A stretch of DNA of 64,000 nucleotides from Escherichia coli (GCF_013315695.1 NZ_CP054353.1), one strand, 5' to 3'. Shown: positions 2,942-36,227, numbered from the stretch's first letter. Made by a program: numbers and translations. The notes: generated from the letters alone by a model not told the origin.

Positions 2942-3657
2942 CTGGCCTCCAGTTTCTGTTGTTCCTGCCCACTGACCGGGCGGTGCAGTCTGACGTTCTG
3001 CCCTTCACGAAACCCCGCATAGCGCGAGGCGTCGCCATTGCGGCTTCTTCCCGGTTTACGCGCCCTGGTGGTTTGCGTCTGCGGGTATTTATGTTCCAGC
3101 CACTGCTGCATCAGTTCACGCTCATCATCGGTCAGGGCAAAGGACTGTATTTCACTGATAACGGCCAGCACCCAGCCTTCGGCAAACTGGTCTCCACGGC
3201 TGGTGCGGGTGGCGGTTTTTATTCTTTTGTTCTGTGCACTGATATACTGCTGACGCGCCTTTTTCAGCTGACGGGCCAGCACTTCCCAGGTGTATGCAGC
3301 CAGTGCCGCACGTTCCCGGTTGCCGTAGAACCCCACAGACGGGTGCGTGCCGGGGTGAATGATGGAGTTAACACCAAATACCTCGCGGATGATGTTCATC
3401 AGGCCCAGCATGTAGCGCGGTGGACGGAGACTGCCTGTCGGCCAGTAGTGACTGATGGTTTCATCAATATCACTCATAGCAATGTCGGAATGTGTGATGC
3501 CGTGAACATCCATCAGTTTACGGGCTCGGCGCAGTGCCAGAGCGGCCTCGTGCGGGTTGCCGGATGCGGCCAGCGCCAGCAACTTTTTCAGTTTCTCAAT
3601 GTGTTTATTCTGGTCTGTCATTGTTCTGTATCTCCGGTATTTTTCTGCCGTTTCCAT
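2938..3657 (-). CDS. Hypothetical early protein, DUF2786-like N-terminal region
   Basis: 239 aa; N-terminal KLKKLLALAASGNPHEAALALRRARKLM resembles the DUF2786 motif common in Mu-like early regions (from memory). Confidence 0.55.
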   Translation of the reverse strand: METAEKYRRYRTMTDQNKHIEKLKKLLALAASGNPHEAALALRRARKLMDVHGITHSDIAMSDIDETISHYWPTGSLRPPRYMLGLMNIIREVFGVNSIIHPGTHPSVGFYGNRERAALAAYTWEVLARQLKKARQQYISAQNKRIKTATRTSRGDQFAEGWVLAVISEIQSFALTDDERELMQQWLEHKYPQTQTTRARKPGRSRNGDASRYAGFREGQNVRLHRPVSGQEQQKLEAR

Positions 3658-3833
3658 GCCCGGACAGCGTCGGACAGCTCTTTCAGGCTGTATGCTGCTT
3701 TAAGCTTTTCCCATAACCACTGTGTTGTTATGTGCATCAGCAGGGCAGCCAGGGCTGCCCCCGCACTGAGGCATGTCGCCAGGCCAGTAAGAATCAGTGT
3801 CCATGCGGTGATTTCCCTGAGTATGTCAGCCAT
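3618..3833 (-). CDS. Small membrane protein
   Basis: 71 aa with one hydrophobic helix (WTLILTGLATCLSAGAALAALLM); overlaps neighbours by a few codons, consistent with an operon. Confidence 0.4.
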   Translation of the reverse strand: MADILREITAWTLILTGLATCLSAGAALAALLMHITTQWLWEKLKAAYSLKELSDAVRAWKRQKNTGDTEQ

Positions 3834-3847
3834 TGAATGCCTCCCGG

Positions 3848-4144
3848 TTACTCGTTCGTGTAAATCACGCCCAGTCGTGCAGCCAGACGTTCCAGTTTTT
3901 TCTGTTTGTGGAAGTCAATCAGCCGGTCCATCCCCTGAAGGCGCAGTTGCTCTGTCATGATTTCCACGTCTGCCAGCTCTGCCGCGAGGTCACTTTCGCT
4001 GCCCTGTCCGTTCAGGTTGCGGGCGGCACTGGCCGCCAGTTCAGCGGCCTCTTCTGCCAGTTTCAGGGCCTGTGCGTCCGGCCCGAAACGCTGCAGGGCC
4101 AGACGGTAGAGGGCGGTGCGGGTGAGTTCGGTGTTTCGTGTCAT
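3848..4144 (-). CDS. MazG-like nucleotide pyrophosphohydrolase (small all-alpha NTP-PPase)
   Basis: 98 aa; acidic helix motifs LAEEAAELAAS and ELADVEIMTEQL resemble the EExxE/ExxD metal-binding helices of MazG/HisE-type pyrophosphatases. Confidence 0.5.
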   Translation of the reverse strand: MTRNTELTRTALYRLALQRFGPDAQALKLAEEAAELAASAARNLNGQGSESDLAAELADVEIMTEQLRLQGMDRLIDFHKQKKLERLAARLGVIYTNE

Positions 4145-4153
4145 GCCGCGCCC

Positions 4154-4426
4154 TCAGTGCTTCCGGCTGACGGTGATGTGCAGGCCGCCTTCTGCAGTGG
4201 TTTCCATCCGGTACGGCACCTCATGCTCTGCCGTGTGGGTGAGTGTGTTCATCAGTACCTGCAGGGCAGCCTCCTTTCCGTTGGTCGCCACAATGGCCTG
4301 TGTGGCCATGCTGATTAGCGCCGTCAGGACGTGATTCACATCGGTGAGGTCGCGGCATTCACACTCGTTGACATAGTGTTCAACAAGGGTTCGGGTGCGC
4401 TGTCGTGCTTCCTGTGGGGTAATCAT
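4154..4426 (-). CDS. Hypothetical early protein
   Basis: 90 aa ORF in the early operon; no motif recognised. Confidence 0.4.
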   Translation of the reverse strand: MITPQEARQRTRTLVEHYVNECECRDLTDVNHVLTALISMATQAIVATNGKEAALQVLMNTLTHTAEHEVPYRMETTAEGGLHITVSRKH

Positions 4427-32421: not shown

Positions 32422-32769
32422 ATGAAAACAACCTCAGTATTCTGGCAACCAGCCCTGCAGGCTCCCGGCGAAATTGTCCGGGGGCTGGATGATATCCGGC
32501 AGGCGATTCAAATTATCCTGCGGACTCCCCGCGGCAGCGACCCGCATCGCCCGGAGTTCGGCAGCAATCTGCATCTTTATATCGACTGGCCTGTAGACCG
32601 GGCCATTCCGCATGTGGTGCGCGAATCCGTCGATGCCATCCGGCGCTGGGAGCCCCGCTGCCAGCTTATGTCAGTTAAACCCGCCGTCGACGGCGAACAT
32701 CTTACGCTCCGGGTGAGCTGGAAAGGCTCAGACGGACAGACCCGGACTCAGGAGCTGCTATGGCGCTGA
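32422..32769 (+). CDS. Baseplate wedge protein (gpW/gp25-like)
   Basis: 115 aa immediately upstream of the J-like baseplate gene. Confidence 0.6.
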   Translation: MKTTSVFWQPALQAPGEIVRGLDDIRQAIQIILRTPRGSDPHRPEFGSNLHLYIDWPVDRAIPHVVRESVDAIRRWEPRCQLMSVKPAVDGEHLTLRVSWKGSDGQTRTQELLWR

Positions 32770-33863
32770 CAGAACCCGATTTTATTGAACGCGATGCCGA
32801 CAAAATCACGGCAGAAATGATTGCGAAGTATGAAGCGGATACCGGCAAAACGCTGTACCCGGCACAGGCAGAACGTCTGCTGATTGATCTGTGGGCCTAT
32901 CGCGAAATGCTGGTCAGGGTTGCGGTACAGGAGGCAGCAAAGCAGAATCTGGTCGCCTTTGCCCGTGAGCCGATGATTGATTACCTCGGTGAACTGGTTG
33001 GTGTATACCGTCTTGCCGCGCAGCCTGCCACCACCACGCTCCAGTTCTCCGTAGATGAGGCACTGGCCATTGATGTGCTGATCCCGGCAGGCACCCGCGT
33101 CAGCGCTTCCGACAGCGTTATTTTTGCCACCGATACAGATGTGGTACTGAAGGCCGGATTGCTGCTGGTCAATGTCACGTCCACCTGTACCGAACCCGGT
33201 ACCGCTGGTAACGGCTGGCAACCTGCGCAGGTCAGTCAGTTACTCGATGAGATTGATAACGTCGACCTGCTGGTGAGCAATCTGACGGCCAGTTCCGGCG
33301 GTTCAGAACAGGAAGACGATGACAGGCTCCGGGAGCGTATCAGGCTGGCCCCGGAGTCATTCACCAATGCCGGAAGCCGTGGCGCATACCGCTTTCATGC
33401 CATGCAGGCCCATCCCAACATTGTCGATGTTGCTGTGCTTTCCCCGGTTCCCGGGACCGTAGATCTGTATCCGCTGCTCAGTACCGGTCTGCCGGACGGC
33501 GGTGTTCTCACGCTGGTAGAGAGTTTCTGCTCTGATGAGAAAGTCAGGCCACTCACTGATACAGTGCGGGCTAAAACACCAGTGAAGGTGGATTACACCA
33601 TTGAAGCCAGGATTACGATCTATCGTGATCAGGATGCCAGGTCTGTAAAAGATGCCGCTAACAGCGCCATACAGAACTGGGTGGCATCACGTGCCGCCAC
33701 GCTGGGGCGCGATATTGTCCCCAGCCAGATTATCAGTGCATTGTCCGTTTCCGGGGTGTACCCGGTTGAACTGGTGACACCGGCACTGCGGGTGGTGGCA
33801 GAAAACGAATGGGCAAACTGTACGGCAATCACTCTTAACATGACTGGAGTGTCTGATGACTGA
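32760..33863 (+). CDS. Baseplate wedge protein (gpJ-like)
   Basis: 367 aa in conserved W-J-I-fibre order. Confidence 0.7.
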   Translation: MALTEPDFIERDADKITAEMIAKYEADTGKTLYPAQAERLLIDLWAYREMLVRVAVQEAAKQNLVAFAREPMIDYLGELVGVYRLAAQPATTTLQFSVDEALAIDVLIPAGTRVSASDSVIFATDTDVVLKAGLLLVNVTSTCTEPGTAGNGWQPAQVSQLLDEIDNVDLLVSNLTASSGGSEQEDDDRLRERIRLAPESFTNAGSRGAYRFHAMQAHPNIVDVAVLSPVPGTVDLYPLLSTGLPDGGVLTLVESFCSDEKVRPLTDTVRAKTPVKVDYTIEARITIYRDQDARSVKDAANSAIQNWVASRAATLGRDIVPSQIISALSVSGVYPVELVTPALRVVAENEWANCTAITLNMTGVSDD

Positions 33864-34434
33864 GCCATTACAACTCCCGCCACCGCTTGAGGGTGATATC
33901 AGTCTCAGGACGCTGGGAAGACTGGCAGGACGGCTGGATAACATCGACCTGAGCGTACTGATGGTCTTTCTCGTCGATATCGTCGACAGTTCCGCGCTGC
34001 CATGGCTGGGCGAGCAGTTCTCACTGTCTGGCGATGGCTGGGAGCTGGCGGAATCGGACGATGTTCGCCGCATGCTTATAAAAGCAGCCATCGAACTGCA
34101 CCGGTATAAAGGGACGCCGTGGTCAATCCGGGAAGTTATCCGCCGTTTTGGCTTTGGTGAAGTGGATCTGATTGAAGGCACAGGTCGTCTCAGTTACGAC
34201 GGCAATCGCAGCTATAACGGACTGTTTGTTCATGGAGATGCAGCCGCCTGGGCAGTTTATCGCGTTATTCTGAAACAGCCCATTACTAACGATCAGGCCG
34301 CGATGCTGCGTCAGACGCTGGCTGCATTTGCACCGGCCCGCTGCCATCTGGCCAGCCTGGAGTATCAGTCTGTGGCCATTCGCTATAACAATACAGCCAT
34401 CCATGATGGCAGTTATAACCACGGGAGCAGTTGA
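33856..34434 (+). CDS. Baseplate protein (gpI-like)
   Basis: 192 aa immediately upstream of the tail fibre gene. Confidence 0.6.
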   Translation: MTEPLQLPPPLEGDISLRTLGRLAGRLDNIDLSVLMVFLVDIVDSSALPWLGEQFSLSGDGWELAESDDVRRMLIKAAIELHRYKGTPWSIREVIRRFGFGEVDLIEGTGRLSYDGNRSYNGLFVHGDAAAWAVYRVILKQPITNDQAAMLRQTLAAFAPARCHLASLEYQSVAIRYNNTAIHDGSYNHGSS

Positions 34435-36221
34435 TTATGGGAAACCTGAATGAAACAGAAAAGTGGGAAGAAAATATCTATCAACTGGAGACATCAGATC
34501 CGGTTCTGGGTGGTGCAGACGGGATATCAAATCGAGCCCCCCGGCAACTGGCAAACAGGACGAAATGGCTGAAGAAAAAAACGGAGGAAGCCGCACAGTC
34601 ACTGGCTGAACACGTACGTTCCCGTAACCACCCGGACGCGACACTGACAGCTAAGGGGTTCACCCAACTGAGCAGTGCCACCAACAGCACCTCTGAAACG
34701 CTGGCCGCCACACCAAAAGCCGTCAAGGCTGCATACGACCTTGCAGCCGGCAAGGCGCCCGTCAGCCACACTCACCCGTGGAGTCAGATAACGGGAGTGC
34801 CTGCTGCCTCGCTGACGGCAAAAGGCACCGTACAATTGAGCAGTGCCATCAACAGCACGTCTGAAATACTGGCCGCCACACCGAAGGCGGTCAAGGCTGC
34901 ATACGACCTTGCAGCCGGCAAGGCGCCCGTCAGCCACACTCACCCGTGGAGTCAGATAACGGGAGTGCCTGCTGCCTCGCTGACGGCAAAAGGCACCGTA
35001 CAACTGAGCAGCGCCATCAACAGCACGTCTGAAACGCTGGCCGCCACACCGAAAGCGGTCAAGGCTGCATACGACCTGGCAGCCGGCAAGGCGCCTGCCA
35101 GCCACACTCACCCGTGGAGTCAGATAACGGGAGTGCCTGCGGCTTCACTGACGGCAAAAGGCACCGTACAACTGAGCAGCGCCACGGACAGTCAATCAGA
35201 AACTGAGGCTGCCACGCCGAAGGCGGTCAAGGCTGCATACGACCTTGCAGCCGGCAAGGCGCCCGTCAGCCACACTCACCCGTGGAGTCAGATAACGGGA
35301 GTGCCTGCTGCCTCGCTGACGGCAAAAGGCACCGTACAACTGAGCAGTGCCATCAACAGCACGTCTGAAATACTGGCCGCCACACCGAAAGCGGTCAAGG
35401 CTGCATACGATCTGGCAGCCGGCAAGGCGCCCGTCAGCCACACTCACCCGTGGAGTCAGATAACGGGAGTGCCTGCTGCCTCGCTGACGGCAAAAGGCAC
35501 CGTACAACTGAGCAGTGCCATCAACAGCACGTCTGAAATACTGGCCGCCACACCGAAAGCGGTCAAGGCTGCATACGATCTGGCAAACGGAAAACAACCG
35601 GCAGATGCCACGCTCACTGCTCTGGCAGGACTTGCCACTGCAGCAGATCGGTTGCCTTATTTTACCGGAGCAGACCGCGCAGCGCTGGCAACCCTTACAG
35701 CTATTGGTCGCGCTATTATCGCTAAGGGCAGTATAAAAGATGTCCTCAATTACCTTGGTTTGGGGGAAGGCTCTGCATTGCCTGTTGGTGTACCGGTTCC
35801 GTGGCCCACCGCCACACCGCCAGCAGGCTGGTTACAGTGCAACGGAGCTACGTTCACCAAAGAACAATATCCTGTTCTGGCCAGAGTCTACCCGACCCTC
35901 CGTCTTCCCGATTTACGCGGTGAGTTTATCCGTGGATGGGACGGTGGTCGCAAGGTTGATACCGGGCGTGCGCTACTTTCATTTCAGGAAGGGACTATCG
36001 TATCCGGTTTTGATGATAATGATACCGGAGATATCAGTTCGCTCGGCTCTACACAATACGGATTTGGTGACGCTTTAACCTCTAATCAACTGGGGGTCAT
36101 AAATGGCAAAAAGTGGATATTTGATGCATCCTCTAAAGGTGCACAAAGATATGACTGGTGGGCTTATGTATCAGCTCGCCCCCGCAATATCGCATTTAAC
36201 TATATCGTGAGGGCGGCGTGA
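34431..36221 (+). CDS. Tail fibre protein with six tandem repeats and an invertible C-terminal domain
   Basis: 596 aa; six 56-aa repeats (..TAKGTVQLSSAINSTSE.LAATPKAVKAAYDLAAGKAPVSHTHPWSQITGVPAAS..); C-terminal ~130 aa lie within the Gin-invertible segment. Confidence 0.8.
   Translation: MIMGNLNETEKWEENIYQLETSDPVLGGADGISNRAPRQLANRTKWLKKKTEEAAQSLAEHVRSRNHPDATLTAKGFTQLSSATNSTSETLAATPKAVKAAYDLAAGKAPVSHTHPWSQITGVPAASLTAKGTVQLSSAINSTSEILAATPKAVKAAYDLAAGKAPVSHTHPWSQITGVPAASLTAKGTVQLSSAINSTSETLAATPKAVKAAYDLAAGKAPASHTHPWSQITGVPAASLTAKGTVQLSSATDSQSETEAATPKAVKAAYDLAAGKAPVSHTHPWSQITGVPAASLTAKGTVQLSSAINSTSEILAATPKAVKAAYDLAAGKAPVSHTHPWSQITGVPAASLTAKGTVQLSSAINSTSEILAATPKAVKAAYDLANGKQPADATLTALAGLATAADRLPYFTGADRAALATLTAIGRAIIAKGSIKDVLNYLGLGEGSALPVGVPVPWPTATPPAGWLQCNGATFTKEQYPVLARVYPTLRLPDLRGEFIRGWDGGRKVDTGRALLSFQEGTIVSGFDDNDTGDISSLGSTQYGFGDALTSNQLGVINGKKWIFDASSKGAQRYDWWAYVSARPRNIAFNYIVRAA
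34644..35651 (+). repeat. Six tandem copies of a 168-bp in-frame repeat within the tail fibre gene
   Basis: Unit starts at 34644, 34812, 34980, 35148, 35316, 35484; near-identical units with a few substitutions. Confidence 0.85.
35755..35834. repeat. Left inverted repeat of the invertible tail-fibre segment (contains candidate recombination site)
   Basis: 80-bp sequence ttggtttgggggaaggctctgcattgcc...cagcaggctggtta is the reverse complement of 37280..37359. Confidence 0.8.
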
Positions 36222-36227
36222 TACCGT

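Follow-up and report, generated by a model that had tools for sequence, protein, structure and literature searches.

Tail fibre gene and invertible tip of the prophage

The window, a stretch of 64,000 nt of Escherichia coli DNA (GCF_013315695.1, NZ_CP054353.1), carries on its plus strand a tail fibre gene at 34437..36221, which encodes 594 aa from the ATG at 34437. The mechanically called ORF is slightly longer (596 aa, 34431..36221, plus strand) and begins with a TTG at 34431; for strains 83972, AF10 and KUEC74, RefSeq starts the CDS at the equivalent of ATG 34437. PHROG tail fibre families match the gene with E-values down to 1e-185. Pfam places six Phage_fiber_2 domains (PF03406) in it, with i-Evalues from 1.2e-19 to 4.4e-17 and each covering model positions 1 to 39–40 of 42, and a Collar domain (PF07484) at aa 453–500 of the fibre ORF. 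The gene lies directly 3′ of the baseplate wedge genes: ORFs 32422..32769, 32760..33863 and 33856..34434, the homologues of gpW, gpJ and gpI, carry the annotations GPW/gp25, baseplate J and tail protein I at identical loci in RefSeq, and a homologue of baseplate protein V is found upstream as well. Wedge genes directly upstream and an adjacent gene for an assembly chaperone are features of fibre genes of the Mu S / P2 H type. A sequence-only reading of the window had described the gene product as a fibre shaft of in-frame 56-aa units, and the V, W, J and I homologues upstream, the assembly gene downstream and the combination of six Phage_fiber_2 domains with a Collar domain bear this out.

We compared the gene with its counterparts in 12 complete E. 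coli genomes and in Escherichia phage PhiKM. The first 210 nt (34437..34646, plus strand) show 0–1 differences between the window and these 13 alleles, and the N-terminal 70 aa are thus constant in the whole set. Helices are predicted in this part at residues 5–19 and 33–61 (AlphaFold2 model, see below). The N-terminus of Mu gp49 docks onto the baseplate wedge (PMC11915804), and by analogy the N-terminal 70 aa probably represent the part that attaches the fibre to the baseplate. This N-terminus belongs to the Mu-like/P2-like baseplate type and differs from that of the lambda side fibre.

The element that carries the gene is a transposable E. coli prophage of the Mu-like (BcepMu-like) kind. PhiKM, which is classified as Bcepmuvirus, is the closest and only matching phage record; its genes bear the Mu-type notes Mup42, Mup45, GemA and gam, and a transposase is also encoded. 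The chromosomal location of this prophage varies among complete E. coli genomes (rstB, clbH, near yeiH, srlE, otsB and dgcQ), as would be expected for a transposable Mu-like phage. In the window, the right end of the prophage adjoins a truncated dgcQ.

Downstream of the constant part of the fibre gene we found an inverted repeat with two arms of 229 nt, 35752..35980 and 37134..37362, which are 90% complementary to each other. The homology of the arms begins at TTGGTTTGGGGGAAGG, and the left arm encodes the start of the Collar domain. The repeat brackets a cassette of fibre tip and chaperone: the tail fibre assembly (chaperone) gene at 36228..36842 (minus strand; phrog_105, E 1e-86, and RefSeq annotation) lies inside the invertible segment, together with a currently unexpressed alternative tip of 170 aa at 36842..37354 (minus strand; phrog_523 tail collar fiber protein, E 7e-66). 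Beside the cassette lies a gene for a serine DNA invertase of the Gin/Cin/Pin type (37426..37998, plus strand; phrog_125, E 3e-94), which RefSeq lists as ‘recombinase family protein’. Strains Z0117 and 22726 carry the tip segment in the opposite orientation to that of the window, with the alternative tip joined to the constant part including the repeats, so both orientations occur in nature. The repeat array described below belongs to the constant part and ends ∼170 bp upstream of the inversion crossover, with a non-repeat segment in between (35586..35751, plus strand) that is 97.6–100% identical among the 13 alleles. Because of this position, either tip is placed on the same shaft. The arrangement resembles that of Mu S (gp49) and the G segment, where a constant part likewise receives a tip that is swapped by a Gin-type invertase and the chaperone gene is found on the invertible segment (PMC11915804). 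In contrast to Mu, the tip of the fibre studied here bears a Collar domain similar to that of T4 gp37/gp12, and the remaining prophage resembles phages of the BcepMu type.

A tandem array of 168-bp units

Tandem Repeats Finder reported a period of 168 bp over 34665..35585 (5.5 copies, 92% matches, 0% indels, score 1588), and this was the only tandem array within 33000..38000. A second, independent repeat finder placed in-register copies at 34642, 34810, 34978, 35146 and 35314, again with a spacing of 168. The window contains six occurrences of a 35-nt core pattern, all of them within the array, compared with an expectation of 0.00 from shuffled sequences. Read in frame with the 596-aa ORF, successive units begin at 34647, 34815, 34983, 35151, 35319 and 35487. 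Five complete units of 168 bp, or 56 aa, occupy 34647..35486 (plus strand), with one PF03406 core each. They are followed by a partial sixth unit at 35487..35585 (plus strand) that consists of the Phage_fiber_2 core only: it equals the first 99 nt of unit 5, after which the sequence is unique, and thus represents the first ∼33 aa or ∼0.6 of a unit, with the Pfam match at aa 351–390 of the 596-aa ORF. The stretch 35586..35651 is non-repeat sequence.

The sequence-only reading had reported six near-perfect and recent 168-bp repeats over 34644–35651. The array itself is confirmed, and six is the right number for the Pfam cores, but only five units are complete and the repeat stops near 35585, where unit 6 diverges after its 99 nt, rather than at 35651. 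Nucleotide identity between pairs of complete units ranges from 85.1 to 97.6%, so that the description as near-perfect holds for the long perfect tracts but not for the array overall. The longest of these tracts measures 171 nt at an offset of 168 (35247–35417 is identical to 35415–35585); further ones are 131 nt (offset 336), 114 nt (offsets 168 and 504) and 93 nt (offset 672) long. The 171-nt tract is the mark of a very recent duplication, and the 339 bp of perfect period-168 sequence at 35247..35585 (plus strand) are the footprint of the latest one-unit duplication. Synonymous divergence between units reaches 0.36, however, and most units are therefore not recent copies; the term ‘recent’ applies to the last duplication alone. 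In the plus frame, pN/pS between units is 0–0.30, which indicates that this frame is under purifying selection.

Two antisense ORFs overlap the array on the minus strand, one of 170 aa at 34599..35111 and one of 133 aa at 35196..35597. These lengths could be taken to speak for real overlapping genes. Both ORFs, however, share a single antisense frame that has only three stops across 34599..35651 and is open just because each unit happens to have no stop there. Two of the three stops fall in unit 4, at substitutions specific to this unit, and break the frame; the other units leave it open. Family searches with both ORFs yielded sub-threshold matches only, and the substitution pattern fits coding on the plus strand. 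We therefore reject the two ORFs as genes, a reading to which we give practically no credence, and regard them as by-products of a repeated stop-free stretch, as had been suggested from the sequence.

Copy number among related prophages

The number of Phage_fiber_2 cores differs between otherwise closely similar prophages. Three cores were found in IPCEC31 (ST131) and in PhiKM, five in KUEC74, AST216, E-1246, EcPF7 and Z0117, six in 83972 and ECAMP047 as in the window, seven in 22726 and AVS0973 and eight in IAI39; AF10 has the same 1791-bp gene span as the window. In the compared complete genomes, the 1.4–1.7 kb upstream are 99.0–99.9% identical to the window. The minimum is two cores, which occurs in database representatives with the same N-terminus, and no allele with fewer than two was found among the 13 alleles and the representative library. 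The expectation that the array is prone to expansion and contraction thus finds support in complete genomes with near-identical flanks, and the comparison of related prophages proposed along with it gave a range of two to eight cores.

The clearest case is KUEC74: its array equals that of the window minus exactly one period of 168 bp and is otherwise identical throughout. The period that it lacks may start at any position of 35247..35418, the perfect 171-nt duplication. Unit 5 of the window is a composite in which the head of unit 6 is joined to the tail of unit 4, and this is the product expected from one event of out-of-register exchange or slippage. Other alleles differ in the kind of unit as well. 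AST216, Z0117 and IAI39 carry a second flavour, 44 aa long, in which the linker reads GKYTAQDATT and has no HxH motif. Higher-order repeats are also present: unit types alternate in AVS0973 and 22726, and IAI39 has a double unit of 100 aa.

Among the 60 E. coli records with the best match, 46, many with the label ST131, share a span of 1287 bp, which corresponds to the allele with three cores; the array is therefore stable within clones. It is polymorphic between prophage variants and not hypermutable. We also considered a phase-variable contingency locus, where a short simple-sequence repeat turns a gene on or off by altering the reading frame or the spacing of the promoter, and rejected it: 168 bp is a multiple of three, all 12 complete-genome alleles are in frame, and the array is clonally stable. 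Literature searches on how the copy number of this repeat varies, and on fibre length in relation to host range, returned nothing specific to Phage_fiber_2.

Arrays of this kind raise the question whether the copy number in the window results from a collapse or expansion during assembly. The 339 bp of perfect period-168 sequence exceed a typical short read, which makes the assembly-collapse hazard pointed out before plausible in principle, and the PhiKM record, with its fewer units, is a partial, gapped assembly with a junction that truncates the fibre ORF. However, two independent complete genomes, 83972 and ECAMP047, have an array of equal length with the same order of units; AF10, another independent complete genome, matches over the same gene span with 99.8% identity and no gap; and the exact 594-aa protein, under the names tail fiber or phage tail protein (NCBI), is found on 20 public contigs. 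Since the copy number recurs in this way, we rejected an assembly error as the source of the six cores in the window and consider it very improbable. The array is nevertheless a real hazard for short-read assembly as well as for automatic annotation: in IPCEC31, RefSeq divides an intact read-through ORF into a pseudogene fragment and a separate CDS. Copy number also provides a cheap marker that separates Mu-like prophages which are otherwise 99.0–99.9% identical.

Module anatomy, distribution and gain or loss of units

Each 56-aa unit is composed of a Phage_fiber_2 core, TAKGTVQLSSAINSTSEILAATPKAVKAAYDLAA, and a 20-aa linker, GKAPVSHTHPWSQITGVPAASL. We obtained an AlphaFold2 single-chain model from an alignment of 62 sequences, which with a mean pLDDT of 62.8 and a pTM of 0.24 is useful for the secondary structure within each unit only. 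The same elements are predicted in every unit, two short strands and then a 14-residue helix over TPKAVKAAYDLAAG. With a pLDDT of 70–88 in this region, the core is predicted to be a small β-hairpin followed by the 14-residue helix, whereas a one-turn helix at WSQ is predicted in the linker at lower confidence. Searching the PDB with the model in Foldseek returned a single match, weak and extended, to 9f4b_F1 (a baseplate chain of Klebsiella phage KP1; E 1e-4, TM ∼0.1), which we note as a lead only.

When the whole fibre and a two-unit fragment were searched against PDB sequences, no solved Phage_fiber_2 array was found, and the linker GKAPVSHTHPWSQITGVPAASL was found in no solved structure. 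The only match to the repeat was Mu S, which has a single matched core (residues 109–148) compared with six in the window; the tip matched T4 gp37, gp12 and a short tail fibre. The in situ study of Mu built the N-terminus of gp49 only (PMC11915804), and a paper from 2012 stated that little was known about structure and function of the Pf2 domain (PMC3368898). The fibre array is a target for a first structure of a Phage_fiber_2 array.

The linker contains an HTH (HxH) motif, which we read from the sequence at 34767..34775 in unit 1 and at 34935–34943, 35103–35111, 35271–35279 and 35439–35447 in units 2–5 (all on the plus strand). In the R1/R2 pyocin fibre, the T4 gp37 tip and the P2 gpV spike, three HxH motifs, one from each chain of the trimer, hold one buried Fe on the axis with their six histidines (PMC6116203). 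By analogy it is reasonable to assume that each unit may provide one candidate metal-binding site in a trimer. HxH is common to these iron-site proteins and the present fibre, but here the motif occurs once per 56-aa unit and lies in the repeated linker of the shaft instead of the tip. The module can do without a metal site, since its 44-aa flavour has no HxH.

Pf2 was originally recognised in lambda stf, and StfR contains the domain as well (PMC3368898). Other PF03406 fibres, such as lambda Stf, Rac StfR and the fibres of EHEC prophages, likewise carry tandem modules in the fibre shaft; the present one combines the core with a 20-aa HxH linker to a period of 56 aa, whereas many others have 44-aa units without HxH. 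In the collagen-like and coiled-coil segments of EHEC prophage fibres, length differences are whole multiples of the repeat unit (PMC3368898). Those units comprise 3 or 7 aa in contrast to the folded module of 56 aa described here, but both kinds vary by whole units. The array combines a known module family with a known kind of variation, and modular, mosaic fibres built from repeats are textbook knowledge. Current understanding is unchanged by our results: the protein was already annotated, the repeat family is catalogued, and the variation in length is as known for repeat-built fibres.

In order to see how widely the module occurs, we searched one 56-aa unit against 1.84 billion representative proteins at E ≤ 0.001. 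A match was found in 1399 proteins, single proteins having as many as 15 matched stretches; a fragment among them had 12 stretches at 85% identity. Two spacings between cores dominated, 44 aa with 89 cases and 56 aa with 53, and the element HTHxWxQ[IV]TGxP was also found in tandem on its own, in a protein of 1641 aa. Proteins bearing the module have N-termini of unrelated fibre types. Matches to the gene occur at a median of 5 places per matching E. coli genome, and 140 of the places lie on plasmids. The modules are thus building blocks that are shared by many fibre genes, in agreement with the mosaicism for which fibre genes have long been known. Short conserved modules common to unrelated phages act as points of recombination. 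Studies by Haggard-Ljungquist (1992), Sandmeier (1992, 1994) and Tetart (1998) reportedly dealt with the His boxes (GxHxH) of T-even gp37 and with mosaicism in the fibre genes of P1, P2, Mu and lambda. Whereas these studies on T-even phages, P1, P2, Mu and lambda concern exchange between phages, the main visible effect in the present case is gain or loss of units within one gene.

Taken together, we consider it likely, with a probability of roughly 0.8, that the array is the modular tail fibre shaft of a Mu-like prophage, and that this shaft gains and loses whole units, is trimeric and carries a tip that can be swapped. Three chains would assemble into one fibre. The units may stack along the trimeric shaft, each contributing a fixed increment of length, so that the number of modules would set the length of the fibre. 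The HxH motifs could clamp the three chains around a metal ion, possibly with one six-histidine site per unit. At the DNA level, out-of-register homologous recombination or replication slippage would add or remove whole units of 168 bp, and the reading frame is kept in such a change because 168 is a multiple of three. RecA-dependent unequal exchange at the perfect tracts of 93–171 nt is probably the route, with replication slippage as the alternative. The commonly cited minimum for efficient RecA-dependent recombination is tens of base pairs, and the tracts are well above it. Exchange with similar modules of other prophage fibre genes might add to the mosaicism, including the appearance of the 44-aa flavour.

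The spread of the module could also be read in a different way, with shaft length being neutral, the array being kept mainly as portable homology for the exchange of fibre tips between unrelated phages, and copy-number variation being a harmless side effect. The notion that conserved motifs in fibres are sites of recombination is classical and goes back to the His boxes of T-even gp37. In line with it, the modules are ∼80–90% identical at the amino acid level in fibres with unrelated N-termini (P1/lambda-like and P2 gpH-like), the several matching places per genome and those on plasmids would offer such homology, and the 44-aa flavour in AST216, IAI39 and Z0117 looks imported from fibre genes of this kind. 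However, purifying selection on the units and the lack of a sampled allele with fewer than two cores suggest that the modules are needed as protein. Neutral length is unlikely in our judgement, though worth keeping in view, and it complements the structural reading without excluding it.

Starting from the modular shaft as the preferred reading, one may go further and propose that shaft length is a second selected axis of host adaptation that acts independently of the tip, with metal-clamped (His6-Fe) modules being gained or lost and thereby tuning the reach of the tip through O-antigen or capsule layers that differ in thickness. We regard this proposal as speculative and rather doubtful. If it were true, prophage populations would carry a standing set of fibre lengths of two to eight modules, each with either tip. 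The natural series of two to eight modules on an otherwise constant fibre offers a ready test of the effect of length on adsorption.

Module make-up of the fibre repeat units

The 56-aa unit of the tail fibre combines a Phage_fiber_2 core with a linker, and the linker element HTHxWxQ[IV]TGxP also occurs as a tandem repeat in its own right, with ∼15 copies in P0022, a representative protein of 1641 aa that was matched in a database search with one 56-aa unit. The linker repeats of this protein are found without any Phage_fiber_2 core, and the 56-aa unit is therefore made of two modules, each mobile on its own, that have become fused. In the fibre genes of the relatives AST216, Z0117 and IAI39, 44-aa units are interleaved among the 56-aa units; their linker, GKYTAQDATT, lacks the HxH motif. 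Two core spacings, 44 aa and 56 aa, predominated among the 150 representative proteins.

A Foldseek search of the PDB with the AlphaFold2 single-chain model of the fibre protein (m90c8cce86ee8) yielded 9f4b_F1 as the sole match with E < 0.001 (E 1e-4, 307 columns, TM about 0.1). This entry is a baseplate chain of Klebsiella phage KP1, 446 residues long. Hairpin-helix modules of a similar kind may be present in it, and among experimental structures it could be the nearest.

Invertible tip cassette and fibre genes of relatives

An invertible fibre-tip cassette lies at 35752..37998 of the window. Besides genes for a chaperone and a Gin-type invertase, it carries an alternative tip that lacks a promoter. 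Its inverted repeats are 229 nt long (35752-35980 and 37134-37362). Among the relatives compared, Z0117 and 22726 hold the cassette in the opposite orientation to that of the window, and some carry two or three spare tips (AST216, AVS0973).

The fibre CDS of phage PhiKM (PQ738613.1, 6007..7264) breaks off abruptly within the inverted-repeat region, and the genes that come next are early genes on the opposite strand. This record is a partial assembly, in which scaffolds seem to have been wrongly joined at the invertible segment. The prophage of the ST131 strain IPCEC31 (NZ_AP026783.1) is a remnant with a shortened baseplate J gene directly after a head gene. Its fibre ORF (3007..4287) reads through intact, encoding 426 aa with three cores; RefSeq splits it into a pseudogene fragment and a separate CDS.

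Insertion sites of the Mu-like prophage

The right end of the prophage adjoins a truncated dgcQ, which codes for a cellulose-regulating diguanylate cyclase (window 38088..39026). The annotation of dgcQ in the matching genome AF10 reads ‘missing N-terminus’, and the gene appears to be disrupted by the prophage insertion. In ECAMP047 (NZ_CP196265.1, 7215..8276) the same prophage adjoins clbH of the colibactin island, and in other strains its neighbours are rstB, yeiH, srlE or otsB. Since the neighbouring genes differ among strains, random transposition is suggested, possibly with inactivation of a gene at each insertion site.
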